From the NCBI RefSeq assembly GCF_003966335.1, contig NZ_CP034549.1:2790001-2822000 (forward strand): a stretch of 32,000 bases of DNA. The letters are read 5' to 3'. This DNA is from Nonlabens ponticola (GTDB taxonomy: Bacteria; Bacteroidota; Bacteroidia; Flavobacteriales; Flavobacteriaceae). Below, piece by piece: positions 5,171-32,000 of this stretch. A model generated the notes under the pieces. That model made no database searches. It was not told the DNA's origin and was given only the letters and a program-made list of their open reading frames with translations. The translations under genes were made by a program, and so were the position numbers. Position 1 is the first letter of the stretch; the number at the start of each line of letters is the position of its first letter.

Positions 5171-6163
5171 ATGAAAGAGATTTTGAATGAGTTGTTTGAT
5201 CATAAGACGCTTTCGCGAAAGCGTGCTCACGACATACTTACAGCCATAACAGCTGGTGAAGTCAATGATGCACAGATCGCCGCATTTCTTACCGTGTACG
5301 GAATGCGCAGCGTGACAGTGGATGAGCTCGCTGGTTTCCGCGATGCTATGCTGGAGCAGGCTTTGCTTATTGATCTAACCAAATACAATCCTATTGATTT
5401 ATGTGGTACTGGCGGCGATGGCAAGAACACTTTTAATATCAGTACACTAGCAAGCTTCGTTACTGCTGGTGCTGGAGTGAAAGTTGCCAAACACGGTAAT
5501 TATGGAGTAAGTTCTGTAAGCGGTTCTAGTAATGTAATGGAATCCATGGGTTTCAAGTTTACCAATGATTTTGAAACGCTGGAAAGGCAAATTGATCAAG
5601 CGAATATATGTTTCCTGCACGCTCCCTTATTTCACCCTGCGATGAAAGCAGTAGCACCAATTAGAAGAGCACTCGGAATCAAAACATTTTTCAATATGTT
5701 GGGTCCACTTGTAAATCCAGCAAGACCCAAATTACAAAGTGTTGGTGTTTTTAATTTGCAATTAGCGCGCAACTATGAATATCTGTTCCAAAATGAAGAA
5801 GGAAAACGATATGCTATCCTGCATGCACACGACGGTTATGACGAGGTGAGTTTGACGGGAAAAACAAGAGTTGCTGGTAACAATGGTGTGGTAGACTTAA
5901 AACCAGCAGACTTCAACTTAAATAAATTGACGCTGGAACAAATTGCTGGTGGCGAAACCGTTGAAGACGCAGCTGCCATCTTCAAAAATGTATTGGAAAA
6001 TAAGGCTACAGAGGCTCAAAAATCAGTCGTAATAGCAAACGCGGCAACCGCTATCGCTGTGGCTCAAGAAGTTTCACTTGTTGAAGCAGTTGGTAAAGCA
6101 AGAACATCATTAGAATCTAGCAAAGCGCTGGAATGCTTCAATAAATTACTGGAATTACAATAA
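5171..6163 (+). CDS. trpD: anthranilate phosphoribosyltransferase
   Basis: 330 aa. GTGGDG PRPP-binding motif and KHGN motif. Confidence 0.95.
   Translation: MKEILNELFDHKTLSRKRAHDILTAITAGEVNDAQIAAFLTVYGMRSVTVDELAGFRDAMLEQALLIDLTKYNPIDLCGTGGDGKNTFNISTLASFVTAGAGVKVAKHGNYGVSSVSGSSNVMESMGFKFTNDFETLERQIDQANICFLHAPLFHPAMKAVAPIRRALGIKTFFNMLGPLVNPARPKLQSVGVFNLQLARNYEYLFQNEEGKRYAILHAHDGYDEVSLTGKTRVAGNNGVVDLKPADFNLNKLTLEQIAGGETVEDAAAIFKNVLENKATEAQKSVVIANAATAIAVAQEVSLVEAVGKARTSLESSKALECFNKLLELQ
5209..5222. repeat. iterated palindrome copy 2 (inside trpD, read as LSRK)
   Basis: Exact 14-mer. Extended palindrome ACGCTTTCGCGAAAGCGT. Confidence 0.95.
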
Positions 6164-6250
6164 CATCAAATACGTTTACTATTGTGGGATTAATTCCGAA
6201 ATAATGAACCAAAAAGACTTAATACTTTGTACTAAATACTTCATACTATC

Positions 6251-7054
6251 GTGGAAGACATACTGAAAAAGATTACTGACCGCACCAAAGCAGATCTAAT
6301 GATCAGGAAGCAGAATACCTCACTTTCAGATCTTCGAGCTATGGAAAACTATTCTCGTGAGACCATATCATTTCACGACGGAATAAAATACGGTAGTGGT
6401 ATAATCGCAGAGCACAAAAGACAAAGCCCATCCAAAGGTTCTTTTAAATGCCCAGCAAGCCTTGAGGATATCGTCAAGGGTTATGAGGCTGCTGGTGCCA
6501 GTGCTATCAGTTGTTTGACTGATGAGCCTTTTTTTGGAGGTACTTTAAAAGATCTTCAAGAGGCTAGAACTCATGTTGACATTCCTATCCTGCGCAAAGA
6601 TTTTATGGTCGATCTATATCAGGTACACGAGGCACGCGCTTATGGCGCCGATGCTATATTACTCATCGCGGCCTGCTTAAATGACGAGGAACTTATCACA
6701 CTGTCTGCAGAGGCTATAAATCTTGATTTGGATATTCTATTCGAGGTTCACGATCTGGAAGAACTTAACCGAGTCAAGAAAGTAGTCAAAGACTTTAAAT
6801 CCAGCTCTTATGTCATAGGTGTCAATAATCGCGATTTGAAAAAATTTAAGACTGATATTCAAATAAGCAAAGACTTATTAGAGCACTTCCCTAAGAAAGC
6901 GCTGGCCATCAGCGAGAGTGGTATTTCAGGTCCAGAAGTGGTTCAAGAGTTGCAAGATTTAGGTTATCGCGGTTTTCTCATTGGTGAGAATTTCATGAAA
7001 ACTAACGATCCTGGACGCAGCTGTGCCAAGTTTATAAAAGCGACGACGCTATGA
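6251..7054 (+). CDS. trpC: indole-3-glycerol phosphate synthase
   Basis: 267 aa from a GTG start. IAEHKRQSPSKG motif. 4-nt overlap with trpF. Confidence 0.92.
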   Translation: MEDILKKITDRTKADLMIRKQNTSLSDLRAMENYSRETISFHDGIKYGSGIIAEHKRQSPSKGSFKCPASLEDIVKGYEAAGASAISCLTDEPFFGGTLKDLQEARTHVDIPILRKDFMVDLYQVHEARAYGADAILLIAACLNDEELITLSAEAINLDLDILFEVHDLEELNRVKKVVKDFKSSSYVIGVNNRDLKKFKTDIQISKDLLEHFPKKALAISESGISGPEVVQELQDLGYRGFLIGENFMKTNDPGRSCAKFIKATTL

Positions 7055-7689
7055 TGATCAAAGTTTGCGGCATGCGAGAAACGAGCAATATCGATGAACT
7101 ACAACAACTCGATATTGATTTTATGGGCATCATCCGCTATCCTAAAAGCAAGCGGTATGTTGACGATCAGCAAAAGGCTGCCATTGAGCAATGCACGATG
7201 AATAAAGGCACCGTTGGCGTTTACGTCAATGCGTCCCTACAAGACATCTTGCAGGATATCATTCCCTTACAGATGGATGTTGTACAGTTGCACGGTGATG
7301 AGGATTCCGCTTTCGCGAAAGCATTACTAGAATTAGACATCAAGGTATTTAAGGCATTTCAAATTACCGATGACTTTGACTTTGATATTCTGAAAGATTG
7401 GGAACAACTAGCTGAAGCCTATCAAGGAAAATTATTTTTCCTATTTGACACAGCAACCAAAAATTATGGCGGCAGCGGCAAGAAATTTAATTGGCAATTA
7501 CTCGACAACTATCAAGGAATGGTGCCTTTTCTATTAAGCGGTGGCATTGCGCCAGATGATGCAGAGTCCATTAAGAATATCAAACACGACATGTTTCTGG
7601 GAGTGGATCTCAACTCGCGATTTGAGGACGAGCCAGGAATTAAAAATATCAAAGCTATCAAAGGCTTTGTTGAAAAATTGAGAAAATGA
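7051..7689 (+). CDS. trpF: phosphoribosylanthranilate isomerase
   Basis: 212 aa. N-terminal IKVCGM motif. Overlaps trpC and trpB by 4 nt each. Confidence 0.9.
7309..7322. repeat. iterated palindrome copy 3 (inside trpF, read as AFAKA)
   Basis: Exact 14-mer with a GATTCC 5' flank. Confidence 0.95.
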
Positions 7690-9662: not shown

Positions 9663-9676
9663 GCTTTCGCGAAAGC
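9663..9676. repeat. iterated palindrome copy 4 (intergenic)
   Basis: Exact 14-mer, 15 nt after the trpA stop. Extended 20-bp palindrome TACGCTTTCGCGAAAGCGTA (9660-9679). Confidence 0.95.
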
Positions 9677-9687
9677 GTAACACCTAT

Positions 9688-9695
9688 TACATTTG
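9688..9695 (+). promoter_or_regulatory. candidate -7 promoter box (TACATTTG)
   Basis: Perfect TAnnTTTG match, 7 nt upstream of the his leader ATG. Confidence 0.4.
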
Positions 9696-9702
9696 CACTG
9701 CA

Positions 9703-9750
9703 ATGAATAACAACGCAACACATCACCATCATTTTGACACTTACCTGTAG
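9703..9750 (+). CDS. hisL: his operon leader peptide (MNNNATHHHHFDTYL)
   Basis: 15-codon ORF with four consecutive His codons (9721-9732), followed by a terminator and hisG. Confidence 0.75.
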   Translation: MNNNATHHHHFDTYL

Positions 9751-10797: not shown

Positions 10798-12092
10798 TGG
10801 AAATCGTACTCAACCCATCTACGAGCCAGCAGGCTAGTTTATTGGAGAGACCGATGAAACAAAGGTCTGAAGTGGATAGCGCTGTAAAAGACATTATCCG
10901 ACTCGTGCGCGATAATGGCGATCAGGCATTGATTGCATTTGCACAGCAATTTGACAACGCCACCATTACAGATTTGAGAGTCTCTGCTCAAGAAATTACC
11001 GCGGCAGCTGCTCAAGTTCCAGCAGATTTGAAATCTGCAATCCAGACAGCCTACGACAACATCTATAAGTTTCACCAGGCTTGTTTTACTCGTGAATATC
11101 CAGTAGTAGAAACCATGCCTGGCATGACGTGCTGGAGAAAATCATTGCCTATTCAAAAAGTAGGATTGTATATTCCTGGAGGCTCGGCACCGCTGTTCTC
11201 GACAGTTTTGATGCTGGCAGTACCTGCAAAAATTGCTGGAAACAAGCAAGTAGTCCTTTGTAGCCCAACGGATGAGCATGGAAATATAAATCCAGTGGTT
11301 CTGTACACCGCAAGTCTTTGTGGCGTCACAGAGATCTATAAAGTTGGCGGTGCTCAGGCGATCGCTGCCATGACACACGGCACGCAAAGCGTTCCAGCGG
11401 TACACAAGATTTTTGGTCCTGGTAATGCTTTTGTCACTAGAGCAAAAGAATTGGCACAGCAGCAAGGTGTCGCGATCGACATGCCGGCTGGACCTAGCGA
11501 GGTTTTGGTCATTGCAGATCAACACGCTAATCCAGAATTCGTGGCTTCAGACTTGTTAGCTCAAGCAGAACACGGTCACGATTCCCAAGTAATTCTACTT
11601 ACAGATTCTGAGAAACTTGCTAAGGATGTAGACGATGCAGTAAAGTCTCAAATAAGCACGCTTTCGCGAAAGCAAACTGCCGAAGCTGCCCTGCAGAATA
11701 GTAGAACTATCGTGTTACAAAGCATTACAGAATGTGTAGCCTGGTCTGATGTATATGCACCAGAGCACTTAATTATCAACACACAAGATGCTGAGGCAGT
11801 AGCAAATCAAATCGAAGTAGCTGGCTCCATATTTATAGGTTCTTACACTTGTGAGAGCTTGGGCGATTATGCCAGCGGCACCAATCATACCTTGCCTACT
11901 TACGGTTATGCAAGGAATTACAGCGGTGTGTCTGTCGATAGCTTTGTCAATAAAGTGACCTACCAGAAAGCGACCGCTCATGGGTTACAAAACCTAGGTC
12001 CTGCTGTTGAAATCATGGCAGCCGCCGAAGGTCTGGATGCGCATAAAAATGCGGTGAGTGTAAGATTAAAAAGTTTAGAAAATAACGATTAG
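10797..12092 (+). CDS. hisD: histidinol dehydrogenase
   Basis: 431 aa. QAEHG motif. Start overlaps the hisG stop. Confidence 0.95.
   Translation: MEIVLNPSTSQQASLLERPMKQRSEVDSAVKDIIRLVRDNGDQALIAFAQQFDNATITDLRVSAQEITAAAAQVPADLKSAIQTAYDNIYKFHQACFTREYPVVETMPGMTCWRKSLPIQKVGLYIPGGSAPLFSTVLMLAVPAKIAGNKQVVLCSPTDEHGNINPVVLYTASLCGVTEIYKVGGAQAIAAMTHGTQSVPAVHKIFGPGNAFVTRAKELAQQQGVAIDMPAGPSEVLVIADQHANPEFVASDLLAQAEHGHDSQVILLTDSEKLAKDVDDAVKSQISTLSRKQTAEAALQNSRTIVLQSITECVAWSDVYAPEHLIINTQDAEAVANQIEVAGSIFIGSYTCESLGDYASGTNHTLPTYGYARNYSGVSVDSFVNKVTYQKATAHGLQNLGPAVEIMAAAEGLDAHKNAVSVRLKSLENND
11660..11673. repeat. iterated palindrome copy 5 (inside hisD, read as LSRK)
   Basis: Exact 14-mer. Confidence 0.95.
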
Positions 12093-13386: not shown

Positions 13387-14496
13387 ATGAAAAAAGTATT
13401 ATTTATAGATCGCGACGGGACCATCGTCAAGGAGCCGCCAACTGATTATCAGCTGGATAGTTTTGAGAAGCTGGAGTTCTTGCCTATGGCAATTACCCAA
13501 TTGCACCGTATTGCACGAGAGTTGGATTATGAGCTGGTAATGGTGACCAATCAGGACGGTCTGGGAACGGATAGCTTCCCTGAAGATACCTTCTGGCCAG
13601 TGCATAATTTGATGATGGACATTCTTGAAAAAGAAGGCGTGACATTTAGTGAGGTTTTGATTGATCGTTCTTTTCCAGAACAGAACGCACCGACTCGCAA
13701 ACCTCAAACTGGTTTGTTGACACACTATATTAAAGGCGACTATGACCTTGCCAACAGCTTTGTCATAGGCGATCGCAACAGCGATATGCAGCTCGCCAAA
13801 AATTTGAGCTGCAAAGGAATTCAGCTGCCATCGATTACAGACGACACGACTTTTGAAGACGAATTGGTTGTTTTAAAAACCGATTCTTGGAAAGATATTT
13901 TTCAGTTTTTAAAAGGTCAACCGCGCAAAGTATCGGTAAGCCGTAAAACCAATGAAACCGATATCAACATCACGCTCAATCTGGACGGCTCTGGAAACGG
14001 AACGATAGATACAGGTTTGAAATTCTACGATCACATGCTGGAGCAATTGCAGCGCCATGGTTCGCTGGACTTGGATATCAAAGTGAACGGTGATCTGGAA
14101 ATCGACGAGCACCACACCATTGAGGACACCGCTATTGCGCTAGGTGACGCTTTCGCGAAAGCGTTATCCTCTAAAAAAGGGATTAATAGATATGGGTTTT
14201 TGTTACCTATGGACGACTCATTGGCCAAAGTAGCAATTGATTTTGGCGGAAGACCATGGATCGTTTGGGAAGCAGAATTTAAAAGAGAATACGTGGGCGA
14301 TATGCCAACCGAATTGTTTTTCCACTTTTTCAAATCCTTCAGCGATGCAGCAAAGTGTAACTTGAATATGAAAGTGGAAGGCGACAATGAGCACCACAAA
14401 ATTGAGTCGCTGTTCAAAGCTTTTGCGAAAGCGATAAAAATGGCAGTCAAACAAACAGGTGACGGTAAATTACCTAGCACTAAAGGCACATTATGA
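13387..14496 (+). CDS. hisB: bifunctional histidinol-phosphatase / imidazoleglycerol-phosphate dehydratase
   Basis: 369 aa. N-terminal HAD motif FIDRDGT. C-terminal IGPD domain ([24 protein letters not shown]). Confidence 0.95.
14149..14162. repeat. iterated palindrome copy 6 (inside hisB, read as AFAKA)
   Basis: Exact 14-mer. Extended palindrome ACGCTTTCGCGAAAGCGT. Confidence 0.95.
14419..14432. repeat. decayed palindrome copy GCTTTTGCGAAAGC (inside hisB)
   Basis: 13/14 match. The single C->T change is at the first C of the central CGCG. Read as AFAKA. Confidence 0.6.
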
Positions 14497-15898: not shown

Positions 15899-16692
15899 GC
15901 CTCAAAAAAAGAATTATACCATGCCTAGACATCAAGGATGGTCGCACCGTCAAAGGAATAAACTTCGTTGGACTGCGCGATGCTGGTGATCCAGTACAGT
16001 TGGCACAGCAGTATGCCGATCAAGGTGCTGATGAATTGTGCTTTCTCGACATCACGGCTACCGTAGAAAAACGGGAAACGCTTGTACCACTAGTCCGCGA
16101 GATCGCTGCTGTGTTGAATATTCCGTTCACCGTTGGTGGTGGCATTAATGATGTCAAACTCGCCAAAGAAATCATCAAGGCTGGAGCCGATAAAATTGCG
16201 GTCAATAGCGCCGCCGTTCACAGACCTGAATTGATCAATGAATTGGCTGCCGAATTGGGAAATCAGTGTGTGGTGGTGGCTGTCGATACTAAGCGTATAG
16301 CGTTAAGCGATAAAGCGAAGCCGTCCCTCGACGGCTGGAAGGATAAGGTGTTTGTCTCTGGTGGTCGCACGGAAACTGACAAAGAAACAATAGCGTGGTG
16401 TACAGAATGTGAGCAACGTGGTGCTGGAGAGATTTTGCTAACAAGCATGGATCACGATGGTACTAAAAACGGATTTGCTTTGGAGATTACGGATACGCTT
16501 TCGCGAAAGCTAAATATACCGATCATCGCATCTGGTGGTGGTGGTACGGCTGCTCATTTTGAGGAATTATTCAAAGATACCCATGCCAGCGCAGGACTCG
16601 CGGCAAGTATATTCCATTTTGGTGAGTTACCAGTGCCTGAATTGAAAAAGCAATTGGCAGACGCTAATGTAGAGGTGAGAATAGTTATTTAA
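15895..16692 (+). CDS. hisF: imidazole glycerol phosphate synthase cyclase subunit (expanded)
   Basis: 265 aa. [16 protein letters not shown] motif and [15 protein letters not shown] motif. Confidence 0.95.
16312..16336 (+). repeat. hairpin module AGCCGTC-CCTC-GACGGCT with a shared 15-mer, inside hisF
   Basis: The 15-mer 16312-16326 is identical to 13356-13370. 7-bp stem at 16319-16336. Lies in a roughly 10-aa extra segment of HisF ([12 protein letters not shown]). Confidence 0.7.
16497..16510. repeat. iterated palindrome copy 7 (inside hisF, read as LSRK)
   Basis: Exact 14-mer. Confidence 0.95.
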
Positions 16693-17379
16693 ATGGACAT
16701 GATGAAACCAGATTTTTCTAAATACAATGATGGACTTGTTCCCGCAATCATCCAAGACGCTTCCAGCGGTAAGGTTTTGATGTTGGGATACATGAATGAA
16801 GAAGCCTATCAAAAGACCGTAGACGATAAACGCGTGACCTTTTTTTCACGCAGTAAAAATAGACTGTGGACTAAAGGCGAGACTTCCAAAAATTATCTGG
16901 ATGTCATGAGTATGGCTTTGGATTGTGATCAGGATGCAATTCTAATCAAAGCTCACGCCCATGGCCCGACTTGTCACACAGGTAGCGAATCCTGTTTTGA
17001 TGCAAATAGCAGCAATGAAGATGATGAAATGTTACGTTTTCCTGCCTCGCCGGCAGGCAAGCGCAAAAGCGAGATCCTGAAACAAGTTCAGGATGACAAG
17101 TTCACCATCAACGATCTTGAAAAAACCATTCATCAAAGAATTGATGACAAGGTAGAAGGTTCTTACACGTACTCATTGATCCAAAAAGGGATTAATAAAG
17201 TGGCTCAAAAAGTAGGCGAAGAAGCGGTAGAAACCGTTATAGATGCCATCAACGGCAAGGATGAAGACTTTCTTTATGAAGCGGGCGATTTGATGTATCA
17301 CTATCTCGTTTTACTCAAAGCTAAAGGATACTCGTTAGCTGATATTGAAGTTGAGTTGGCAAAGCGTCATGGCAAGTAG
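16693..17379 (+). CDS. hisIE: bifunctional phosphoribosyl-AMP cyclohydrolase / phosphoribosyl-ATP pyrophosphatase (expanded linker)
   Basis: 228 aa. GPTCHTGSESCF cyclohydrolase motif followed by a PRA-PH helical domain. About 30 extra residues lie between the two domains. Confidence 0.93.
   Translation: MDMMKPDFSKYNDGLVPAIIQDASSGKVLMLGYMNEEAYQKTVDDKRVTFFSRSKNRLWTKGETSKNYLDVMSMALDCDQDAILIKAHAHGPTCHTGSESCFDANSSNEDDEMLRFPASPAGKRKSEILKQVQDDKFTINDLEKTIHQRIDDKVEGSYTYSLIQKGINKVAQKVGEEAVETVIDAINGKDEDFLYEAGDLMYHYLVLLKAKGYSLADIEVELAKRHGK
17072..17101 (+). repeat. 30-nt hairpin module, copy in the hisIE linker
   Basis: 29/30 identical to 12594-12623. Read as ILKQVQDDK. Preceded by a second hairpin, CCTGCC-TCGCC-GGCAGG (17041-17057). 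Confidence 0.85.
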
Positions 17380-17510: not shown

Positions 17511-17576
17511 GTTTCATAATTCTAAGCTAGCTAACGTTGGTGAATAAGAAACTAACATTCAACTTTTTTATAAAAC

Positions 17577-17863: not shown

Positions 17864-20800
17864 TTAATCTTCATCACTCTCTTCAACCACCAGATAATCA
17901 AGATTTAGTGCATTGAATTTCTGGTTGAATTGCTTGATATCATCAGAGAGTACTTTGTTGAATTTTGCTAATTCTGTTTCAATTTCTGCGCTTAATTCAT
18001 CACGCACCGCAATCATTTGCTGCGTTGGTGCAAAATCTCCTACTGAAGCTAGTGCATTCAAATGAGCTAATTTATTGGTCAATCGTATTGGGAAATTCAA
18101 TGGATCTTGACCACTGCGATTTTGAGTTTGGTAGAGTGCCTTTTCTACCTCATCAAATTTAGTAAGCATTGTGTCTGCTAACTCAACCATTTCCTTGACG
18201 CCATCTTCCTCGCGATCTCCATATGCTGTTTTAAAGGCTTTGAGTTTCTTGTTGAAATCTCGGATTTTCTCAATGGATTTATGCGCCTCGTCAACCGTTT
18301 CATTGACAGAATCAACAAAGTCAAATTGAGATTGCATATCTGCTGCTGTCGCTTCACTATTGGGCGCTGCTACGATTTCAATGTTGCGTTCTAAAGATTC
18401 TTGCGGTGTTTCCAAAACTACTTTGTACGTGCCAGGCGTTGCCCGAGGTCCTGTAAGATCTGCCCACCATAGGATCATGCCTGGCAATTCTTTGGCACCA
18501 TCATATTCTGTATCCCAATTGAACATGTTAGAACCTGCATCTACCTTCAACTTGTTCTTCTTGTCATAGGTACTGTATTCTTTAATGAGCTTATCGTTGC
18601 TATCATAAAACTTAAGTGCCACACTATCTGTTGCCATTGCCTCTGGAATATAATAATGCACTTGGACTCCAGCAGGATGATTAGTTCCCGATGTCAATGA
18701 TGATCTACCACCACGACCAGCCATGCGGTACGCCGTTTTGGGTGCAAATAGCTGTAATGATTCTGCAGTGGTTTGCTTGTTACGCTTTCGCGAAAGCGGT
18801 ATCATCTTCAAGCCCTGTCTCACTAATTCTAAATCGTCATGGATCCAAAGGCTGCGACCCTGTGTAGCGACAACGAGATTGTTCTGTTTTACCGCAAGAT
18901 CTGTGATAGGTACGATGGGTAGATTCATCTGGAAGCTAGACCAGTTATCACCATTATCGTCGCTGATGTACAGACCAGTCTCGGTTCCAGCATATAGAAA
19001 TCCTTTTTGTCGATCATCTTCACGCACCACGCGAGTGAAGTGCTCACTAGGAATGCCATCGTTGATTTGTTGCCATGATTTACCATAATCTGTCGTTCTA
19101 AATAGATAAGGTTTAAAATCGCCCAGTTTATATCGCGTCGCAGCTAGATAGCAAGTTGCGGCATCGTATCTGCTAGGTTCTATGCTGTTGATTTGTGCCC
19201 ATTCTGGTAGTTTTTTAGGGGTAATATTATTCCAACTTTGCCCACCATCTTTAGATAAGTGAACAAGCCCATCATCACTACCTACCCAAAGCTCACCTTG
19301 TTTGACTGGCGATTCTGCCGCAGCAAAGATGGTCCCATAATACTCGACGCTTGTATTATCTTGAGTTATTGGACCACCGCTTGAAACGAGTTTCGTTGGG
19401 TCGTTTCTTGTCAAATCGTCTGATAATGTCTGCCAGCTCTCGCCCTCGTTGGTTGTGACGTGCACATGATTTGAGAAAGCATAAAGTTTGTTAGGTTCAT
19501 GCTTAGAAAACAGGATAGGGAAATTCCACTGGAAGCGGTATTTCATATCCTCGGCGCCATGACCCATTGGGTTGTCTGGCCATACATTTACCGCTCTAGT
19601 AGATTTTGTCGCGTGATTGTATCTAGTCAGAAAACCGCCATAGCTACCACCGTAAACAATGTCATTGTTCTTAGGATCTACCGCAATGTGTGCGCTCTCG
19701 CCACCTGCGGTGCCTTCCCAATCTGCATCTGTAATGGAACCGCCTGTCGTACGGTGAGGTATCCTAATAGTACCGTTGTCCTGTTGTGCCACATAAATGC
19801 GATATGGGAATGAATCGTCTGTCGTTACTCTATAATACTGTGCGGTAGGCTGGTTGTGATAAGTACTCCACGTCTCGCCACCATCATAGGTGATTTGTGC
19901 ACCACCATCATCGCCCATGATCATACGGTCTGGATCTTCTGGAGCTATCCATAAATCATGGTGGTCACCATGAGGCGCGCGTGCGCTGATGAAATTACGG
20001 CCACCATCGGTACTTTTATGGTAAGAAACGTTTACTACATAAACCTTGTCCTCGTCTTGAGTGTCCGCATAAATTCTTGTGTAATACCACGCTCGTTGTC
20101 TCAGGCTGCGATCATCATTGGTTTTTGTCCAGGTAAGACCACCATCGTTACTGCGATACACGCCGCCTTCATCCTTGTTTTCTACAATGGCATACACGCG
20201 ATCGCTATTCACCGGCGATACTGTGACACCCATGATACCTAACGTACCTTGGGCAAAACCATCGTTTGTTGAAATCTCCTTCCACGTCTCACCATAATCG
20301 GTGCTTTTCCACATCGCGCTGCCATCGCCACCACTACTCAAGCTGTACGGCGTGCGTTGCAGTCTCCATGTTGTTGCATATAGATTGCGTGGATTTGATG
20401 GGTCGATAATCAAATCGACTGCGCCAGCCATGTCATTGACATATAATACCTTTTTCCAGTTTTTACCACCGTCGATGGATTTGTAAACACCACGATCTGT
20501 AGATTCCTTATAGATATTACCCAGAACGCCTGCGTAAACGATATTATGATCATTAGGATCAATCGCAATGCGAGGTACGTGCCTGCTTTCTGGTAGTCCA
20601 GAGAATTCCCAAGTCTTACCTGCATCCACTGTTTTCCATATACCGTAACCACTAGAAACGTTACCGCGCACGGTTTTCTCGCCACCACCTACATAAATCA
20701 CATTATGATCACTAGGTGCTACGCTTACCGCTCCTATACTACCGCCAAAGTAGCCATCTGAGATATTCATCCACGTCCTACCACCATCCAGCGTTTTCCA

Positions 20801-21016
20801 TACGCCACCACCGGTGCTACCAAAGTAAAATAGGTTAGGTTGTCCAGGCACGCCCGTTACCGCTGCGCTGCGCCCACCACGGAATGGTCCTAGTTGTCTA
20901 AACTTTTGTGACTCGTAGAATTTTTGTGCCTCTGGTGGTTCTGGTAACTGTTGAGAATTTGCTTTCGCGAAAGCAAAAACTAAAAAGACATAGGTAACAA
21001 TGCTTGAAATCTTCAT
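17864..21016 (-). CDS. secreted BNR/Asp-box repeat protein (sortilin/VPS10-like, GH74-like beta-propeller)
   Basis: 1050 aa with a signal peptide. At least 10 Asp-box motifs of the form (S/T)xDxGxxW (WKTLDGGRTW, WKTVDAGKTW, YKSIDGGKNW, WKSTDYGETW, YRSNDGGLTW and others). Helical C-terminal region. Confidence 0.8.
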   Translation of the reverse strand: MKISSIVTYVFLVFAFAKANSQQLPEPPEAQKFYESQKFRQLGPFRGGRSAAVTGVPGQPNLFYFGSTGGGVWKTLDGGRTWMNISDGYFGGSIGAVSVAPSDHNVIYVGGGEKTVRGNVSSGYGIWKTVDAGKTWEFSGLPESRHVPRIAIDPNDHNIVYAGVLGNIYKESTDRGVYKSIDGGKNWKKVLYVNDMAGAVDLIIDPSNPRNLYATTWRLQRTPYSLSSGGDGSAMWKSTDYGETWKEISTNDGFAQGTLGIMGVTVSPVNSDRVYAIVENKDEGGVYRSNDGGLTWTKTNDDRSLRQRAWYYTRIYADTQDEDKVYVVNVSYHKSTDGGRNFISARAPHGDHHDLWIAPEDPDRMIMGDDGGAQITYDGGETWSTYHNQPTAQYYRVTTDDSFPYRIYVAQQDNGTIRIPHRTTGGSITDADWEGTAGGESAHIAVDPKNNDIVYGGSYGGFLTRYNHATKSTRAVNVWPDNPMGHGAEDMKYRFQWNFPILFSKHEPNKLYAFSNHVHVTTNEGESWQTLSDDLTRNDPTKLVSSGGPITQDNTSVEYYGTIFAAAESPVKQGELWVGSDDGLVHLSKDGGQSWNNITPKKLPEWAQINSIEPSRYDAATCYLAATRYKLGDFKPYLFRTTDYGKSWQQINDGIPSEHFTRVVREDDRQKGFLYAGTETGLYISDDNGDNWSSFQMNLPIVPITDLAVKQNNLVVATQGRSLWIHDDLELVRQGLKMIPLSRKRNKQTTAESLQLFAPKTAYRMAGRGGRSSLTSGTNHPAGVQVHYYIPEAMATDSVALKFYDSNDKLIKEYSTYDKKNKLKVDAGSNMFNWDTEYDGAKELPGMILWWADLTGPRATPGTYKVVLETPQESLERNIEIVAAPNSEATAADMQSQFDFVDSVNETVDEAHKSIEKIRDFNKKLKAFKTAYGDREEDGVKEMVELADTMLTKFDEVEKALYQTQNRSGQDPLNFPIRLTNKLAHLNALASVGDFAPTQQMIAVRDELSAEIETELAKFNKVLSDDIKQFNQKFNALNLDYLVVEESDED
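18784..18797. repeat. iterated palindrome copy 8 (inside the BNR gene, read as LSRK)
   Basis: Exact 14-mer. Confidence 0.95.
20961..20974. repeat. iterated palindrome copy 9 (BNR signal peptide, read as AFAKA)
   Basis: Exact 14-mer. Extended 20-bp palindrome TTTGCTTTCGCGAAAGCAAA. It encodes the A-x-A signal-peptidase site. Confidence 0.95.
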
Positions 21017-21136
21017 AGTTGCTGGATTTGGGTTAAAGATAAGTATAACTCATAATTTAAAGTTAAGGGAAAAATATACCTACATACAGGAAATAACAAT
21101 AGGCTGATAAACAGCAATCTAGCTTAATTTCAACTA

Positions 21137-21748: not shown

Positions 21749-21828
21749 GAACATCAGGACAGTATTGAGCATGCCTATAGCGGCATCTTTGTACGGTAAT
21801 TAAAAACAACAATTAAAAATTATATATC

Positions 21829-22377: not shown

Positions 22378-22413
22378 GGTTCACAACGCTTTCATAGTTG
22401 GTTTGTAGATAGG

Positions 22414-22440
22414 TCCCTAATCTTGATTTAAGATTAGGGA
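22414..22440. terminator. bidirectional terminator between convergent genes
   Basis: TCCCTAATCTT-GATTT-AAGATTAGGGA, a perfect 11-bp stem. Confidence 0.75.
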
Positions 22441-22450
22441 TCTATTGATT

Positions 22451-23281: not shown

Positions 23282-23311
23282 GACTTAAATATACTCAAAA
23301 GCTTGATGCAA

Positions 23312-23611
23312 CTATTTGAGATTTTTTCTCATGTTCCTGATGCTTTGTGCGTTTACAACTTTAAATCCATTTCGCTTAAGTTTTGACGCCGCGATACCAC
23401 TGCGACCGCCCATAGCGCAATAAACAACAATAGGTTTATTCTTATCTAGTTTATCCATTTGTGCATCAATTCCCTGCACAGGAATATTGATCGATCCTTC
23501 TATGTGATCGCTATTATATTCTGACGCTGTGCGCACATCTAGTAGTGTCGCATCCTGCTCAACATAGTCTTTTATTTTACTGCTCTTGTTTTTATTGAAA
23601 AATCCCCACAT
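23312..23611 (-). CDS. rhodanese-like domain protein
   Basis: 99 aa. Active-site loop CAMGGRS in a single rhodanese fold. Confidence 0.85.
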   Translation of the reverse strand: MWGFFNKNKSSKIKDYVEQDATLLDVRTASEYNSDHIEGSINIPVQGIDAQMDKLDKNKPIVVYCAMGGRSGIAASKLKRNGFKVVNAQSIRNMRKNLK

Positions 23612-23638
23612 GTGGCTAACTGTTTTTGGGTTAGTACG

Positions 23639-23652
23639 CTTTCGCGAAAGCT
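23639..23652. repeat. iterated palindrome copy 10 (intergenic)
   Basis: Exact 14-mer, 8 nt downstream of the hydroxylase stop on the minus strand. Confidence 0.95.
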
Positions 23653-23660
23653 ACATTACA

Positions 23661-25316: not shown

Positions 25317-25318
25317 GA

Positions 25319-25945
25319 ATGCGTGAGTTGGCTCAAAGCTACTTTAAAAAAGATACTTTCGCATCATATCTTTACCACGTGACCCATCGCCAAAAGCAAA
25401 TTTTTAAGACCGCAGCCGTGCTTTTTAAAGAACGCGGTTACAGCGCCGTGACCATGCGTGATGTCGCGGCAGCTATGAATATCAAGGCAGCAAGCTTGTA
25501 CAATCACATATCTGGGAAACACGAGATTTTAGCCAGCCTTGTTCTTGAGGTGGCTCATAAGTTCTCAAGTGGTATGCATGCAGTACGGTTGGATGGTGAT
25601 TCCGCTTTTGCGAAAGCTGAAAAACTTATAGATCTACACATACAAATTGCCGTTGATCATACAAATGCACTCGCGGTTCTCAATACTGACTGGATGCATC
25701 TAGAGGGCAAGACATATGAGGAATACATCGCTTTGCGCAAAAAGTATGAGCAGGATTTTAAAGAAATTCTAGAACAAGGGATAGCCAGTAGTGAATTTAA
25801 AAAGATGAATGTGGATACTATGCTTTTCAATCTTCTCAGCACATTGCGATCCATTTACCTATGGATACCAAAAAAATCGACCACGCAAGTGGCCGATTTA
25901 AAGAATGAACTTCCTGTCATCTTGTTGACTGGAATAAGTAACTAG
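25319..25945 (+). CDS. TetR/AcrR family transcriptional regulator
   Basis: N-terminal HTH (AVTMRDVAAAMNIKAASLYNHI). ATG 25319 lies 2 bp from the divergent hydroxylase start, so in-frame GTG 25379 is a plausible true start. Confidence 0.85.
   Translation: MRELAQSYFKKDTFASYLYHVTHRQKQIFKTAAVLFKERGYSAVTMRDVAAAMNIKAASLYNHISGKHEILASLVLEVAHKFSSGMHAVRLDGDSAFAKAEKLIDLHIQIAVDHTNALAVLNTDWMHLEGKTYEEYIALRKKYEQDFKEILEQGIASSEFKKMNVDTMLFNLLSTLRSIYLWIPKKSTTQVADLKNELPVILLTGISN
25604..25617. repeat. decayed palindrome copy GCTTTTGCGAAAGC (inside the TetR gene)
   Basis: 13/14 match with the same C->T change as 14419. The 26-nt block 25597-25622 matches the ftsZ copy (reverse complement of 31645-31670) with 1 mismatch. 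Confidence 0.75.
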
Positions 25946-27054: not shown

Positions 27055-27162
27055 GTTTTTTATTTTCAAGTTAAGCCAGCCATAAGCGATGTATGCCAAT
27101 CTAGCGTTAAACGCAGCCTTTGTAATTGTTAAGGTAATTCTGGTAATCTCGTACGCACGGAT

Positions 27163-27402
27163 TTAGGTCATCTGTGGACGATACCTATAACAATGCACGA
27201 TCATAAGTATCTTAATGTTTGAAAACAATCCACGATACATAAAGGTAGAGATGGAAATACTTTTAAAAAGAAAGCCGCCATCACGAGACATATCATGCTC
27301 TTGATGTTTAACATCGATGTACCGAAAAATTGACGAATTCATTTGGTAAAGGTTTGCTGTCTTAAAACACCAGGCTTGAAAAGACTGGCAGCGTATTTGC
27401 AA
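27163..27402 (-). pseudogene. MFS transporter C-terminal fragment (truncated paralog of 28533-29879)
   Basis: GGFLFKSISISTFMYRGLFSNIKILMIVHCYRY aligns with GGILFETITTYTFLMGGGLFLIITILMIVHRYRH of the intact gene. The 28-nt block 27184-27211 is 27/28 identical to 28581-28608. No N-terminal part is present. Confidence 0.65.
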
Positions 27403-27429
27403 AAAGGAGCGCGACGAGGATCTAAATTT

Positions 27430-27455
27430 AATCCTACTATGGTCACGAATGAATA
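27430..27455 (+). repeat. inverted, diverged copy of the tRNA-Arg 3' end plus its flank
   Basis: AATCCT-ACTAT-GGTCACGAATGAATA compared with the minus-strand sequence AATCCT-GTCGA-GGTCACGAATGAATA at 17717-17742. The 15-mer at 27441-27455 is the exact reverse complement of 17717-17731. Confidence 0.55.
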
Positions 27456-27900
27456 TTTCAATAGTGATAGAAAACTCGTTTTCACACTGAACCTAAAATC
27501 TTTTTTTTCTATCACAAACTTGACAGTCATAAATAAGAGTAGATCTTGTGACACTACTGAGAGTGTGGCTTGCTTACGGCATTTAATAAATTTTAACAAC
27601 TTTATTAAATAAATTGTTAGTTCCTACTAACAATGCACTTGCTATAGCAAATGGAGACATGTTGATTCATACCTTATCAACTTTATGAATGATAACCATC
27701 CAGTACGTATTCTAAAGAAAAAATTGCTGACTATAGATAAAGTACTGTTTACCAGTATTTTAACCAATGATAATAATATCGATAAAAGTTATGTATCGTG
27801 TTGAAAAACTTGCTTAAACGCGTATTATATCGATAAATTAGTTTTCAACGAATTGTAAAAAATCAAATACTATATCATTGTAAATCAGAAGATAAGATGT

Positions 27901-28482
27901 ATGAAGTATATAGCTAAATTATTCTTTATTGCTGTTATGACGACTAATGCACAAGTTGGCATCAACACATCAACACCACAAGAATCCCTGCATGTAGCAG
28001 GTACAGTGCGCATAGAAACAACAAATCAAGCTTCGGTGAAGACTACAAAGCTTTTTGGACTTAATGATGACGGCACGTTGAGAGAAATAGAGGTAGGAGA
28101 AAACTTAGTGCTTACTAATAATGTCCTGCACGCAAGACCTTATGATCATTCATTTGGGCAAATAAATTTGACCGTAAAAGATAATAACAATGTGGACCTA
28201 TTACTCGACCCAGGAGAGGCCAACTTTGGAAAAACAATAATAAGAGTGAACAATTCTTCAGGTGAATCTCAAATTACAGGCTTCACAGATGGCTACGATG
28301 GACAGCATATTTGGCTTTATGCAGTCTCTGGAACTCTAAAACTAATTCCCAACGATACTGGTTCCAGCAATGGTAACCAGATTGAAGTCAATGAAAAACC
28401 TGCTGCAAAATTGTGGGCTATGATTGAAGTAATTTATGATGGTACCCGTGGCAAATGGATTATAATGCAGAGTCATGCTTAA
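27901..28482 (+). CDS. hypothetical secreted protein
   Basis: 193 aa. Signal peptide ending in AQ-VGINTSTPQESLHV, an N-terminal pattern I recall from uncharacterised Bacteroidota surface proteins. No catalytic motif recognised. Confidence 0.6.
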   Translation: MKYIAKLFFIAVMTTNAQVGINTSTPQESLHVAGTVRIETTNQASVKTTKLFGLNDDGTLREIEVGENLVLTNNVLHARPYDHSFGQINLTVKDNNNVDLLLDPGEANFGKTIIRVNNSSGESQITGFTDGYDGQHIWLYAVSGTLKLIPNDTGSSNGNQIEVNEKPAAKLWAMIEVIYDGTRGKWIIMQSHA

Positions 28483-28532
28483 TAATGCATTCAGGTAATT
28501 AGTTATTTGAAAGGATTAAGGCTGCTTGAATT

Positions 28533-29879
28533 TCATGTTACAACTACATCAGCGGTCTCCGTCTTAAGATCATCCTTATGCCTATAACGATGCACGATCA
28601 TAAGTATCGTGATAATCAAGAATAATCCACCACCCATAAGAAAGGTGTAGGTAGTTATGGTCTCAAAAAGAATACCACCCATGACCAGGCCTATCATGCT
28701 GGCGATGCTGCCCATGGATGTTCCAAAACCTTGAATGGTTCCTTGCGTTTTCTTAGTTCCTGTAGCCGACAATAAGCTCAAGAAACTAGGCCACATCAAT
28801 CCGTTACCTATGGATAGAATGGTGTTAGCTACATAGAGCATGACGATACTCTCAAAAGTCAATAAACTAAAACTGATGGCTAGACATAGTGATCCAATCA
28901 AAACTAATGTGTGACTGTTGATACGCTTGGAAAGCCAATTTAAAATTGGACCTTGTACCACCACCATGATCAAACTAGAATAAGCTAGAAAAATTCCTAG
29001 TTCAATTGCTGTCCAATCCAGCAAGGTATTTGCATAAATCGGCAGCCCAGCATAAAACAGACTGAACGCAAAAAAGGTCAAAAAGTAAATACTGAACAGC
29101 AGCGGTATTCCAGATATTTTGATGATTCTTTTGAAAGCAACAGCATCTTCATCTTGCTGCTCTTCTTCACCTTCGGTATAACAGTCTTTATGTTCTACCT
29201 GAAAAAATCTTCTGATATTTCTCAGGCTTATTTTTCTGGTATCTACCGCGCATGGATTGCTTTCTTCAAGCCTGTAATGGATCACGAAGATTGCAATCAA
29301 TGAGATGATTGCGGCTATGATGATGGGTAGCAACTCCTCAAGAAATGTTGTGGCTAACAATCCTGCCACCGCTGGTCCTAAGACAAATCCCAAGCTGGTG
29401 CTGGCGCCCATCTTCCCAAAATTTGAATTGCGATTCTCGTCATCAGAGATATCAGAGAGATAGGCATTTGCTACAGATACATTGCCACCGGTAAAACCAT
29501 CAAAGATCCTTGCGATAAAAATCACGATCAGCGGCAAGGTCATCACATAGTTTCCAGTAATTTCTGATTCTTGTGACCATAGGTCTGTTTCTGGAAGCAA
29601 GAAGGCTAGGATGAACAAAGACCAGGCGAGAAAAGTTCCTGCCTGCGAGATGATCAAAACCTTCTTACGCCCTATGCGGTCTGATAATTTTCCTAAAATA
29701 GGTGCACCTATAAACTGAAAAAACGGATACATCGCACCTAGAATCCCGTAAATAAAACCATTGCCGCCAAAGTCTGTAACAATGTAAATGAGAATAGGAA
29801 TAACAACACTATAGCCTAATATCCCAATAAAATTGACCATTAAAATCGGGAAGATCTTTGACCTTAATAATGATGCCAT
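28533..29879 (-). CDS. MFS transporter (drug:H+ antiporter-like)
   Basis: 448 aa with about 12 hydrophobic segments. MFS motif A GKLSDRIGRKK. Acidic central loop. Confidence 0.88.
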   Translation of the reverse strand: MASLLRSKIFPILMVNFIGILGYSVVIPILIYIVTDFGGNGFIYGILGAMYPFFQFIGAPILGKLSDRIGRKKVLIISQAGTFLAWSLFILAFLLPETDLWSQESEITGNYVMTLPLIVIFIARIFDGFTGGNVSVANAYLSDISDDENRNSNFGKMGASTSLGFVLGPAVAGLLATTFLEELLPIIIAAIISLIAIFVIHYRLEESNPCAVDTRKISLRNIRRFFQVEHKDCYTEGEEEQQDEDAVAFKRIIKISGIPLLFSIYFLTFFAFSLFYAGLPIYANTLLDWTAIELGIFLAYSSLIMVVVQGPILNWLSKRINSHTLVLIGSLCLAISFSLLTFESIVMLYVANTILSIGNGLMWPSFLSLLSATGTKKTQGTIQGFGTSMGSIASMIGLVMGGILFETITTYTFLMGGGLFLIITILMIVHRYRHKDDLKTETADVVVT

Positions 29880-29952
29880 AAAGCGTGTACTTGACCTTAA
29901 AGATACTCATTGTCAGAGTGAGCTAATCAACCTTGCAAAAAGGTAAAACTAG

Positions 29953-30216
29953 TTATCTATCTTTTAATTCCTCAAGGTATTTGTGCCATACCTTTTCTGC
30001 TTCTTTCATGTCATCATTGCGATGTGGATGATGCTTGGAACGCTGTTCCATGGTAACACAAATTTGCTTGCCATGCGCGAGATCGATCTCTCCTTCATCG
30101 AGCAGTCTCTCAACTTTTTCCACGCTTTCTTCGGCTTTTTCTTTATCCTTGAAGCCTAAGCCTTCGACGGTGCTTGCTGGGTTATCGTCTGTGTAAAGGT
30201 TTTCTGATTTTGACAT
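29953..30216 (-). CDS. small conserved hypothetical protein
   Basis: 87-aa charged, helical ORF with no competing frame. Family uncertain. Confidence 0.55.
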   Translation of the reverse strand: MSKSENLYTDDNPASTVEGLGFKDKEKAEESVEKVERLLDEGEIDLAHGKQICVTMEQRSKHHPHRNDDMKEAEKVWHKYLEELKDR

Positions 30217-30293
30217 TTTTTATTTTCAAGCTACAAACAAACCCAAAATCTGAACTTCTACTTTTCAGACATTTAACGTGAGGCAATAAAAAA

Positions 30294-30314
30294 GGCCTCT
30301 GAAATTCAGAAGCC
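30294..30314 (-). terminator. intrinsic terminator after yqeY
   Basis: Minus strand GGCTTCTGAA-T-TTCAGAGGCC, with one G-U pair, followed by TTTTTT (plus-strand A-run 30286-30293). Confidence 0.7.
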
Positions 30315-30336
30315 CTTATCACTTTACTTGTTCGAT

Positions 30337-30786
30337 CTATGAATTCAGTTTTTGCTTGACGATGGTGCTTATCGTGCGACCATCTGCCTTACCTGCCAGC
30401 AATTGATTTGCTCTGCCCATGACTTTACCCATGTCTTTCATTCCATTAGCACCAGTTTCATCTATGACTTGTTGCACGACTGTAGCAATCTCGTCTTCAG
30501 ACATTTGCTCTGGTAGGAATTGCTCTAGTACTGCAGCTTGCGCTAGCTCTGGTTCTGCGAGATCATTGCGGTCTTGCTCAGTAAAGATTCTTGCGCTGTC
30601 TTTTCGTTGTTTTACCAACTTCTGGACGAGTTTTATCTCTTGCTCTTCACTTAACTCTGCCGCGTCACCCGATGTTTTAGCAAGCAATAGCTCACTCTTT
30701 ACAGCTCTTAGTGATGCAAGCGCTACTTGATCCTTACTTTTCATGGCCTCTTTCAAGGCTGTCATGACTTTCTTTTCTAAACTCAT
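30337..30786 (-). CDS. yqeY: GatB/YqeY domain-containing protein
   Basis: 149 aa. An N-terminal KEAMKSKD...LR.VKSE pattern and the length are typical of the YqeY family. Confidence 0.85.
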   Translation of the reverse strand: MSLEKKVMTALKEAMKSKDQVALASLRAVKSELLLAKTSGDAAELSEEQEIKLVQKLVKQRKDSARIFTEQDRNDLAEPELAQAAVLEQFLPEQMSEDEIATVVQQVIDETGANGMKDMGKVMGRANQLLAGKADGRTISTIVKQKLNS

Positions 30787-30823
30787 TTCTTCAATTTCTA
30801 ATTATTAGCAACAATCAAATACA

Positions 30824-32000
30824 TCAATCTGGATTGTCGTGCAAAAAGGAATTATTGTTAGATCGCAACTGGATCTCATTGTTCTCATCAGTATTCAAGG
30901 TGGTTCTTGAGATCGAGGTTCCCGATGGATTCTCGTCTAGCTCTACACCATGACGCTGAAATGCAGGCTTGCTTTCAAGCTCTTCTAACCTGTGTGTTGA
31001 TTTAAACTTGAAGTTATAGGCATGCATTTTTCTCTTGCGCTCTTCCGCTCTCAATTTCAACACCTCATTGATAGGCATCTCAGTTGGATCTAATTCTTGA
31101 TCAACAGGTTGAATTGTGGCTGGCGCAGGTGCTTCTGTGACCTTTTTGGTCATGATTTCAACCTCAGCTTGCTCATTTTTTGTTGGCTGTGCTGCGTTCA
31201 AGTTTTCCTCAACTTCCATGTAATCGTCTAGTGAGTACTTGCGTATTCCATCATCGGAAACCTCGGTCACTGGGATCACTTCAACGGCATCATTGACCTC
31301 GATATCCTCTAATTGGTAGGTGATTTTATCTTCTGGTGCATTTGCGTTCTCATCCTCATGCAGCGGCATATCAAAGTCAAAAAGGATTTGTTCCTTTACC
31401 TCAATTTGATCTTCTTCCTGTGGCTGCGTTGCTACTGGTTCTTCTTCTCTTATCGTATAATTGATGGCATCTTGATCCAGCACCTCATCATAAACGACGT
31501 TCAGATTCTTGATAAATTCAGTCGTTGGGATCAATGGATTTTCCATGACTGGTGGCATGATCTCTTCTGGCTCTTCATCGCCTAGCTCGTGCAATATGAT
31601 GACTGGTTCCTCGACCTTTTTTATTGGTTGTGATGGTTGTGGTGTTTCAGCTTTCGCGAAAGCGGAATCATCAACATTATCTTCTTCCTGATCGTCTTGA
31701 TCCATAATCAATTTGCCTGGTTGCACGTTGCCATTACCGTTGTCCAACACCTGTGTGGTGCGCTGCTCTTCTTCCAGCGTGTGGATGATGCGACGCGTCT
31801 CTGTATTTGATATCTCATTTTGCTGTTCTGCATCAAAGCCTGTGGCAATAACAGTCACCGCGATGGCATCACCTAATGATTCTTCCTCGCCTACACCCAT
31901 GATGATGTTTGCGCCGCCGCCGGCCTCGTTCTGGATATGCTCGTTGATCTCACCTATCTCGTCAATTGTGATCTCCTCAGTTCCAGAAACAATGAGTAGC
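30824..32000 (-). CDS. ftsZ: cell division protein FtsZ (3' part; 5' end lies beyond the window)
   Basis: The frame is open to the window edge. It reads ...EITIDEIGEINEHIQNEAGGGANIIMGVGEEESLGDAIAVTVIATGF, then a roughly 300-aa acidic linker and a conserved C-terminal peptide (NNSFLHDNPD). Confidence 0.92.
   Translation of the reverse strand, partial: LLIVSGTEEITIDEIGEINEHIQNEAGGGANIIMGVGEEESLGDAIAVTVIATGFDAEQQNEISNTETRRIIHTLEEEQRTTQVLDNGNGNVQPGKLIMDQDDQEEDNVDDSAFAKAETPQPSQPIKKVEEPVIILHELGDEEPEEIMPPVMENPLIPTTEFIKNLNVVYDEVLDQDAINYTIREEEPVATQPQEEDQIEVKEQILFDFDMPLHEDENANAPEDKITYQLEDIEVNDAVEVIPVTEVSDDGIRKYSLDDYMEVEENLNAAQPTKNEQAEVEIMTKKVTEAPAPATIQPVDQELDPTEMPINEVLKLRAEERKRKMHAYNFKFKSTHRLEELESKPAFQRHGVELDENPSGTSISRTTLNTDENNEIQLRSNNNSFLHDNPD
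31650..31663. repeat. iterated palindrome copy 11 (ftsZ linker, read as AFAKA)
   Basis: Exact 14-mer. Confidence 0.95.

Follow-up and report, generated by a model that had tools for sequence, protein, structure and literature searches.

A 14-nt palindrome, GCTTTCGCGAAAGC, recurs throughout the 32,000-nt stretch of Nonlabens ponticola DNA (contig NZ_CP034549.1) that we analysed and here call the window: 11 exact and two one-mismatch copies were found, against a chance expectation of 0.01 obtained from dinucleotide-preserving shuffles. This 14-mer forms the centre of a longer, degenerate palindrome (about 20–26 bp), a DNA-level word specific to one clade of marine Flavobacteriaceae that comprises Nonlabens, Dokdonia and uncultured lineages related to them. 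Point substitution creates new copies in places where the sequence, or the peptide that it encodes, already comes near the motif. A perfect copy is then held at the same site across species while the neighbouring bases diverge, and the density of copies is maintained quasi-regularly, at about one in 2.3 kb. Protein-coding constraint only filters the placement and the frame of the motif. As far as the searchable literature goes, the motif seems to be undescribed in Bacteroidota: our literature search found the 14-mer in no paper and nothing that tied Nonlabens or Flavobacteria to such a palindrome, and the matches to TTTCGCGAAA were irrelevant. An earlier note on this DNA had described the repeats; its observation is accurate for the window, and three of its four inferences over-reach.

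The window contains asnB, trpEGDCFBA, hisGDCBHAF-IE, a tRNA-Arg gene, and genes for a BNR/sortilin-like protein and a TetR regulator, together with the 3' part of ftsZ, whose open reading frame continues past the window end and whose product is 100% identical to N. ponticola FtsZ. The HisF of the window likewise matches that of N. ponticola at 100% identity. Coding copies are named below by the peptide of their frame (AFAKA, LSRK or FRES). Both one-mismatch copies read GCTTTTGCGAAAGC. The sites are as follows:

2551..2564, exact copy, intergenic, 21 nt past the asnB stop and upstream of trpE
5209..5222, exact copy with the full 18-mer ACGCTTTCGCGAAAGCGT, trpD residue 13, LSRK frame
7309..7322, exact copy with left flank GATTCC, trpF residue 87, AFAKA frame
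9663..9676, exact copy with the 18-mer, intergenic, 15 nt past the trpA stop and about 250 nt upstream of hisG
11660..11673, exact copy, hisD residue 288, LSRK frame
14149..14162, exact copy with the 18-mer, hisB residue 255, AFAKA frame
14419..14432, one-mismatch copy (TTC>TTT, silent), hisB residue 345, AFAKA frame
16497..16510, exact copy, hisF residue 201, LSRK frame
17057..17070, degenerate site GCAAGCGCAAAAGC with four mismatches, hisIE, aligned to the FRES-frame one-mismatch copy of N. antarcticus hisIE
18784..18797, exact copy, BNR/sortilin-like gene on the minus strand, residue 740, LSRK frame
20961..20974, exact copy, signal peptide of the BNR protein, residue 15 (...LVFAFAKA...), AFAKA frame
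23638..23651, exact copy, intergenic, 9 nt past the stop of an aromatic amino acid hydroxylase gene on the minus strand
25604..25617, one-mismatch copy (TTC>TTT, silent), TetR-family gene residue 96, AFAKA frame
31650..31663, exact copy, variable C-terminal linker of ftsZ on the minus strand, AFAKA frame

The motif is common across the clade. Un-ascertained DNA of eight Nonlabens and Dokdonia species held 74 copies in 219 kb, and the density in the two genera was about one per 2.3–3 kb. Every his-operon locus compared carried the motif; these loci came from six further species of Nonlabens and from a related metagenome-assembled genome (MAG). The 22-kb dcw/ftsZ locus of Dokdonia sinensis had seven exact and three one-mismatch copies, and the dcw locus of N. 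marinus was also motif-bearing. A metagenome scan with the 18-mer as query matched at least 120 marine contigs; among the matches listed, to which all metagenome counts below refer, there were 245 copies in 885 kb, and GC content was 31–45% apart from one contig at 55%. By contrast, the his loci of other Bacteroidota (80 among the matches listed, 1.35 Mb) contained the motif only twice, both times on the HisB peptide FKAFAKA; this set came from a scan of genome contigs with HisB, in which the matches listed were relatives of at most 69% identity, and it serves as a negative control, not to establish orthology. One exact copy, at 7747, was seen in 22 kb of Leeuwenhoekiella sp. A16 (L251), and neighbouring genera outside Nonlabens and Dokdonia may carry the motif at low density. 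The word is also sharply defined: 256 exact copies stood against 27 with one and 22 with two mismatches, a ratio of exact to one-mismatch copies of about 10:1.

Spacing was much more even than random placement would give. When the TetR variant is counted, ten consecutive gaps in the window measure 1966–2677 nt, with a coefficient of variation (CV) of 0.10. In the un-ascertained 219 kb, the median gap was 2340 nt and the CV was 0.58 compared with 0.94 for random placement, a value as low being reached in none of 5000 simulations. Over all spacing tests, which reuse orthologous sites of related species, the CV was 0.54–0.58 against 0.89–0.94, and none of 2000 and none of 5000 simulations reached the observed values. 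Gaps of 1.88–2.68 kb made up 44% of the total compared with 13% at random (simulation maximum 33%), and further gaps clustered near 4.3–5.0 and 6.2–7.4 kb. On the metagenome contigs, gaps shorter than 1 kb accounted for 7% compared with 32% at random.

The earlier note had proposed that the motif was imposed on existing codons rather than inserted, and orthologue alignments confirm this. The sites in trpD, trpF, hisD, hisB (residue 255) and hisF were gap-free over a 19-residue neighbourhood in 4–80 orthologues, so the motif was written over codons that were already there. The ancestral peptides were already near it, as in KTLSKDEA>KTLSRKRA, LPRKE>LSRKQ and GEAFIKAL>GDAFAKAL. At the hisF site, the copy is exact in the clade of N. 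ponticola, N. marinus and YIK11, and more distant Nonlabens show 3, 5, 6 and 8 mismatches; these outgroup intermediates indicate that the site was built by successive substitutions.

Once made, copies persist. At orthologous sites the 14-mer was usually perfect while the 150-nt flanks were 68–88% identical (12–32% diverged), and sites without a perfect motif mostly differed at three or more positions. The site upstream of hisG was exact in six relatives, the trpF site in N. marinus, N. ulvanivorans and N. xiamenensis, and the hisD site in six relatives, with one or two mismatches in two others. The hisB-255 site was exact in eight of nine relatives with identical flanks (ggtgac/gttatc), and the TetR site was exact, and bordered by the same gattcc, in each of the six relatives aligned. 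The BNR-740 site was exact in metagenome contig L093, where the flanks were 68% identical, and AFAKA(E/D) was kept in 11 of 13 Nonlabens FtsZ linkers. The least conserved site was hisB-345, which lies 270 nt from the hisB-255 copy: it was exact in five of nine relatives and had three mismatches in three. Closely spaced duplicate copies appear to be dispensable. The hisB-345 copy sits on a peptide conserved across Bacteroidota, and the view of it as a mere reflection of that peptide, FKAFAKA, was revised since the site is exact in five relatives; the peptide is universal, whereas the perfect DNA word is clade-specific.

We then asked how the motif is distributed over reading frames. For the window, the gene identities and the frame counts given in the earlier note are right: AFAKA occurs four times (trpF, hisB-255, the BNR signal peptide and ftsZ), LSRK four times (trpD, hisD, hisF and BNR-740) and FRES never, and the two one-mismatch variants (hisB-345 and TetR) add two to the AFAKA frame. 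The generalisation that only two of three frames are used does not hold. An exact FRES-frame copy occurs in hisIE of N. marinus, N. dokdonensis and N. ulvanivorans, within the same operon as in the window, and 24 of 108 coding copies on the metagenome contigs were in this frame. According to database gene calls, the relatives had 26 AFAKA, 10 LSRK, 4 FRES and 12 intergenic copies. Frames on the metagenome contigs were assigned with a codon-usage log-likelihood caller that was checked against database gene calls and whose residual error concerned copies just upstream of a start codon. It gave 137 intergenic, 55 AFAKA, 29 LSRK and 24 FRES copies over all 885 kb, and 40, 36, 12 and 7 respectively for those copies that had not been used to find the contigs. 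FRES therefore made up 13–22% of coding copies and LSRK 22–27%. With such shares, zero FRES among the eight coding copies of the window has a probability of about 0.14–0.33; given the FRES copies in relatives, the zero is an unremarkable small-sample effect. The frame bias itself is real, with AFAKA the commonest frame and FRES the least used. A null model based on codon usage predicted shares of.59–.68 for AFAKA,.01–.02 for LSRK and.31–.39 for FRES, so that FRES was about 2-fold under-used and LSRK more than 10-fold (10–20-fold) over-used. The LSRK frame needs the rare codons TCG and CGA, and its excess despite these codons shows that the DNA word, not the peptide, is what is kept.

AFAKA-frame copies also recurred at residues 12–30 of secreted or hypothetical proteins (window 20961; L204 13627 and 19814; L205 20378; L207 20557; L208 13336; L201 16874). 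The sequence ...AFA-K suits the A-x-A end of a signal peptide, a place that the motif seems to favour as a 'cheap' niche. Intergenic copies were enriched (15 of 63 copies against 8.8% of non-genic DNA, P=3e-4), and 14 of these 15 lay 9–123 nt past a stop codon.

Outside the core, base preferences extend the palindrome on both sides. In the half-site, position -1 was C in 80% of copies, -2 was never G, -3 was T in 66% and -4 was T in 70%, and C was nearly absent out to -10. TTCC was the commonest flanking 4-mer, with (T/G)TAC as the next class, and these preferences were two-fold symmetric whatever the direction of the gene. The two-fold symmetry and the length of 20–26 bp suggest that the word is the recognition site of a putative dimeric DNA-binding protein.

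Three rival explanations were weighed against these data. The earlier note had argued from shared flanks that the copies spread from one another, through gene-conversion-like patches or a tiny mobile element, and so form flank-sharing subfamilies. The flank identities it reported are exact: the TetR and ftsZ copies are identical over 26 nt but for one mismatch, and the copies at 9663 and 23638 have an AGTAC flank in common. Full identity over 12 nt of flank was expected in about 0.006 pairs under an independent position-frequency null, and the +1 base of the TetR and ftsZ copies is T at both sites in N. ponticola but G at both in N. marinus. Nevertheless, both are ancient sites with orthologues throughout the genus, and their identity ends exactly where the extended consensus ends. 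In the AFAKA frame, GATTCC-core-GGAATC is the extended palindrome read as D-S-A-F-A-K-A-E, the peptide common to the two copies. From species to species, every orthologous site retains flanks peculiar to itself, such as ggtgac-core-gttatc in hisB and gattcc in TetR, which together with the extended consensus makes copying unneeded to explain shared flanks. The stepwise outgroup forms of hisF and the gap-free alignments, in which no target duplication was seen, also argue against it. Flank-sharing subfamilies are thus unsupported over and above a degenerate palindromic extension at ancient orthologous sites, and we consider spread by copying very improbable as a general account, while a single local conversion may have occurred between the TetR and ftsZ copies. 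The decayed copies had invited a different explanation. It is correct that both variants carry C>T at the first C of CGCG and that the orthologous sites are exact in relatives (all six aligned for TetR, five of nine for hisB-345). Both have plausibly decayed, and for TetR the exact site in every aligned relative places the decay in the N. ponticola lineage. The earlier note took the shared change for a signature of 5-methylcytosine deamination, for which a simpler account suffices: TTC>TTT, with its mirror change GCG>GCA, is the only silent G:C>A:T transition that the AFAKA frame allows, and the shared C>T is therefore no indicator of 5-methylcytosine. Among 36 one-mismatch variants from all loci, C6>T occurred eight times, G1>A eight times, C2>T five times and a change in the inner CpG once. 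Six of the eight C6>T variants were silent in the AFAKA frame, one was intergenic and one was non-silent; among intergenic one-mismatch copies, one change fell in the outer and one in the inner CpG. AT-biased mutation filtered by protein selection is sufficient to explain the variants, and methylation would be neither indicated nor needed.

A neutral by-product of repair, as in Elhai's model for the highly iterated palindrome (HIP) of cyanobacteria, would leave the motif functionless: a methyltransferase acting on TCGCGA or CGCG would be coupled to a Vsr-like short-patch endonuclease that corrects near-matches. The core does hold CGCG and the NruI-type site TCGCGA, the ratio of exact to one-mismatch copies would be in keeping with active correction, C6>T ranks with the commonest variants, DUF559 domains of Vsr-like fold are conspicuous in the his operons of relatives, and an association of HIPs with methyltransferases has precedent (PMC4390886). 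On the other hand, this model predicts neither the even spacing nor the decay of close duplicates, and a specificity of 14–26 bp is far longer than that known for any methyltransferase or Vsr site. The excess of C6>T is explained by silent-site filtering, the DUF559 inserts adjoin no motif copy, and the lytic phage described below has no copies. Outside the motif, TCGCGA shows neither avoidance nor expansion (nine sites in the window against about five expected), and CGCG is likewise at or above expectation; on the same counts we rejected restriction-site avoidance. We regard a repair by-product as improbable. The slimmest chance, in our judgement, belongs to a hairpin acting in transcripts as a terminator or 3'-end stabiliser. 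The position of 14 of the 15 intergenic copies soon after a stop codon and the folding of extended forms at -6 to -14 kcal/mol are as such a role would have it. The 18-mer folds at -6 kcal/mol, but the core alone reaches only -1.9 kcal/mol, about three quarters of un-ascertained copies lie within genes, and the flanks are two-fold symmetric irrespective of gene direction. No T-run or U-tract was found after intergenic copies, and an Rfam search at all copies matched no family. An intrinsic terminator was therefore rejected, for lack of a U-tract, weakness of the hairpins and the intragenic position of most copies.

The lytic Nonlabens phage P12024S (35.7 kb) had no copy even at up to two mismatches, where host density predicts about 12–15, and the non-syntenic segments at about 27.1–30.3 kb of the window and 13.6–19.8 kb of L204 were copy-free. 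The only long motif-free gap of the window, from 25604 to 31650, contains such a non-syntenic stretch. The phage (L249) also lacks TCGCGA, although its base composition predicts about four such sites, and it has a DNA methyltransferase gene of its own at 32699–33376.

The abundance, even spacing, origin by substitution, frame bias, post-stop enrichment and absence from this phage together make the motif behave like an uptake sequence or a self-tag of the HIP1 type. From its sequence, and by analogy with these systems, we tentatively favour the reading that it serves as an uptake and recombination self-tag for natural transformation. The motif would be read per unit length of DNA as a 'self' tag, and it would accumulate through biased uptake and homologous recombination (molecular drive), through selection, or through both. 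Natural competence is known in Flavobacteriaceae, and Riemerella columbina prefers its own DNA (PMC7965970). The DNA uptake sequences (DUS) of Neisseriaceae and the uptake signal sequences (USS) of Pasteurellaceae resemble the motif in many respects: they occur about once per 1–3 kb and more evenly than random, originate by mutation and recombination, are biased in frame and under-represented in coding relative to intergenic DNA, form dyad-symmetric intergenic copies after genes, are clade-specific and positionally stable, and are missing from foreign or unshared DNA and from genes without homologues (PMC2817400). In the motif, we found the corresponding clade-specific abundance, even spacing, point-mutation origin, frame bias and post-gene intergenic excess. 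HIP1 (GCGATCGC) and the alternate HIPs of cyanobacteria are likewise perfect palindromes with a CG-rich, restriction-type core; HIP1 and the motif are both over-represented by orders of magnitude inside and between genes, and share spread by substitution, conservation of orthologous sites, which implies selection, and non-random spacing (PMC5861425, PMC4390886, 10.64898/2026.06.24.733823). In our data, too, the palindrome is hyper-abundant both inside open reading frames and in the DNA that separates them, and its sites are conserved beyond neutral expectation. Whether HIP1 serves chromosome structure or the uptake or recombination of DNA is a matter of debate (PMC5861425, PMC4390886, 10.64898/2026.06.24.733823); palindromic HIP1 raises transformation efficiency and has been proposed as an uptake signal (bioRxiv 10.1101/2024.09.10.611283; 10.64898/2026.06.24.733823). 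The motif differs from HIP1 in its host phylum, Bacteroidota, in its unrelated sequence, in having a 14-bp invariant core with an extension to about 26 bp instead of 8 bp, in its lower density, and in a regularity of about 2 kb instead of a periodicity of 10–90 kb. Since it is neither GCGATCGC nor a cyanobacterial alternate octamer, we do not count it as a HIP; it is an analogue of HIP1 only. Repetitive extragenic palindromes (REP), the bacterial interspersed mosaic elements (BIME) and repeats like miniature inverted-repeat transposable elements (MITE) are, like the motif, short, abundant, palindromic and often placed just past stop codons. REPs, however, are extragenic, imperfect, 30–40 bp long and spread by insertion through RAYT transposases. 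A REP or MITE mobile repeat was rejected, as most copies lie in frame inside conserved enzymes and are gap-free against up to 80 orthologues.

Several points weigh against the uptake-tag reading. DUS and USS are asymmetric 9–12-mers read by a pilin (ComP in Neisseria), whereas the motif is itself a palindrome. Because orthologous sites were reused, the gaps behind the spacing statistics are not fully independent. In addition, the prophage-like contig L216 (IMG/VR UViG_2617271332_000001) carries copies at 4210, 7851 and 10955, near host density, which leaves a single lytic phage to carry the phage–host contrast. All the sequence features would also suit a nucleoid-architecture site, and sequence data cannot separate the two readings. 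In the architectural alternative, an abundant dimeric protein of the nucleoid-associated type or of the type that loads SMC (structural maintenance of chromosomes) complexes would bind one site per about 2.3 kb, kept by selection. The quasi-regular mode near 2.3 kb with its further gap classes, the extension of the palindrome to about 26 bp, as is typical of sites bound by dimers, the positional conservation and the motif-free lytic phage all fit it. HIP1 offers a precedent of selection with periodicity (PMC5861425), and an architectural function was proposed for it by Xu, Lawrence and Durand (2018). Yet among known nucleoid proteins none has some 1000 strictly identical sites of 14 bp, the periodicity of HIP1 is not on the scale of 2 kb, no sequence datum sets this alternative apart from the uptake-tag model, and post-stop enrichment and dispensable close duplicates suit both. 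The chromosome-organising proteins ParB and Noc are dimeric and bind perfect palindromes of 14–16 bp (parS and NBS, respectively) with a TTTC...GAAA design. Their sites number about 4–70 per genome compared with about 1000 predicted for the motif, and have 4 nt between TTTC and GAAA compared with 2 in the motif. We regard the architectural alternative as possible, if rather doubtful. A more specific proposal, which we put forward with some reserve, is that the word of about 20–26 bp is a chromosome-wide 'self' ruler, one per about 2.3 kb, with a dimeric reader and a turnover of sites governed by the distance to the neighbouring copy: gains would occur in gaps, and duplicates closer than about 1 kb would decay.

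Several further features of these loci were noted. Downstream of the pre-hisG copy (9663 in the window), at a distance of about 11 nt, there is a conserved (T)TACnTTTGCA box (window 9677–9720 and the orthologous positions in L201, L202, L204, L205, L206 and L208). It resembles the Bacteroidota -7 promoter element TAnnTTTG and is followed about 7 nt further on by an ATG that may start a his leader peptide; the pre-hisG motif copy would overlap the -33 region of the predicted promoter. Compared with N. marinus (L201/L252), N. ponticola has the OYE-BNR block (window 17400–27900) in inverted orientation, and the MarC-PBP1-Omp85 genes that lie between BNR and ftsZ in N. marinus are replaced in N. 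ponticola by an unknown 193-aa open reading frame, a major facilitator superfamily (MFS) transporter and an 87-aa open reading frame (27.9–30.2 kb). In N. dokdonensis (L202), a 1.8-kb block with a hypothetical gene and an AAA ATPase lies between trpA and hisG, with exact copies at both ends (510 and 2320). This was the sole case that fitted motif copies as boundaries of cassette insertions, an idea that we rejected; it is perhaps a coincidence.

The his operons of relatives also contain inserts. A DUF559/MTES_1575 domain (Vsr-like PD-(D/E)XK endonuclease) is fused in frame to the C-terminus of HisD (L202 3447–5153; L206 3281–4972; L208 3035–4858), and in one MAG (L208 7556–8686) a DUF559 domain sits in frame in the middle of HisH, adding about 165 residues between HisH positions of about 120 and 143. 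These fusions look like selfish insertions of an endonuclease domain into housekeeping genes. We rejected the inserts as readers or targets of the motif, as none lies next to a motif copy. Modules of the toxin-antitoxin type (DUF6364-PIN; Xre/RES) and a GNAT gene lie between his genes in several Nonlabens relatives (L202 10853–11559, L206 11025–11707, L208 10864–11564, L206 1264–2165 and L208 985–1892), and such inserts are absent from N. ponticola and N. marinus. Among the viral sequences, L216 has a gene resembling an S49 prohead protease and a phage depolymerase domain. A few IMG/VR 'viral' contigs bear more than one copy, and the equal distances between copies in several of them (4480 nt in L225, L226 and L238; 4880 nt in L221 and L235) suggest a single related element.

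Few genomic words are hyper-abundant. Well-studied classes are limited to USS, DUS and HIP1, and the function of HIP1 is still debated 30 years on. The motif would be a fourth, independent case, from an ecologically important marine phylum, with a long invariant core and a sharp spacing of about 2.3 kb. If the ruler proposal is true, the word would be either the first DNA-uptake signal of Bacteroidota or a new, regularly spaced nucleoid anchor. The clade offers a comparative system, with many sequenced species and orthologous sites gained and lost, which could separate selection from molecular drive. It could also aid in finding the reader protein by phylogenetic profiling and in testing self-recognising transformation in marine Flavobacteriaceae. 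Placing the motif in constructs might raise genetic tractability, an effect that methylated HIP1 has in Synechococcus. In annotation, the motif accounts for the recurrent AFAKA, LSRK and FRES peptides and for runs of rare codons in the proteomes of these bacteria.

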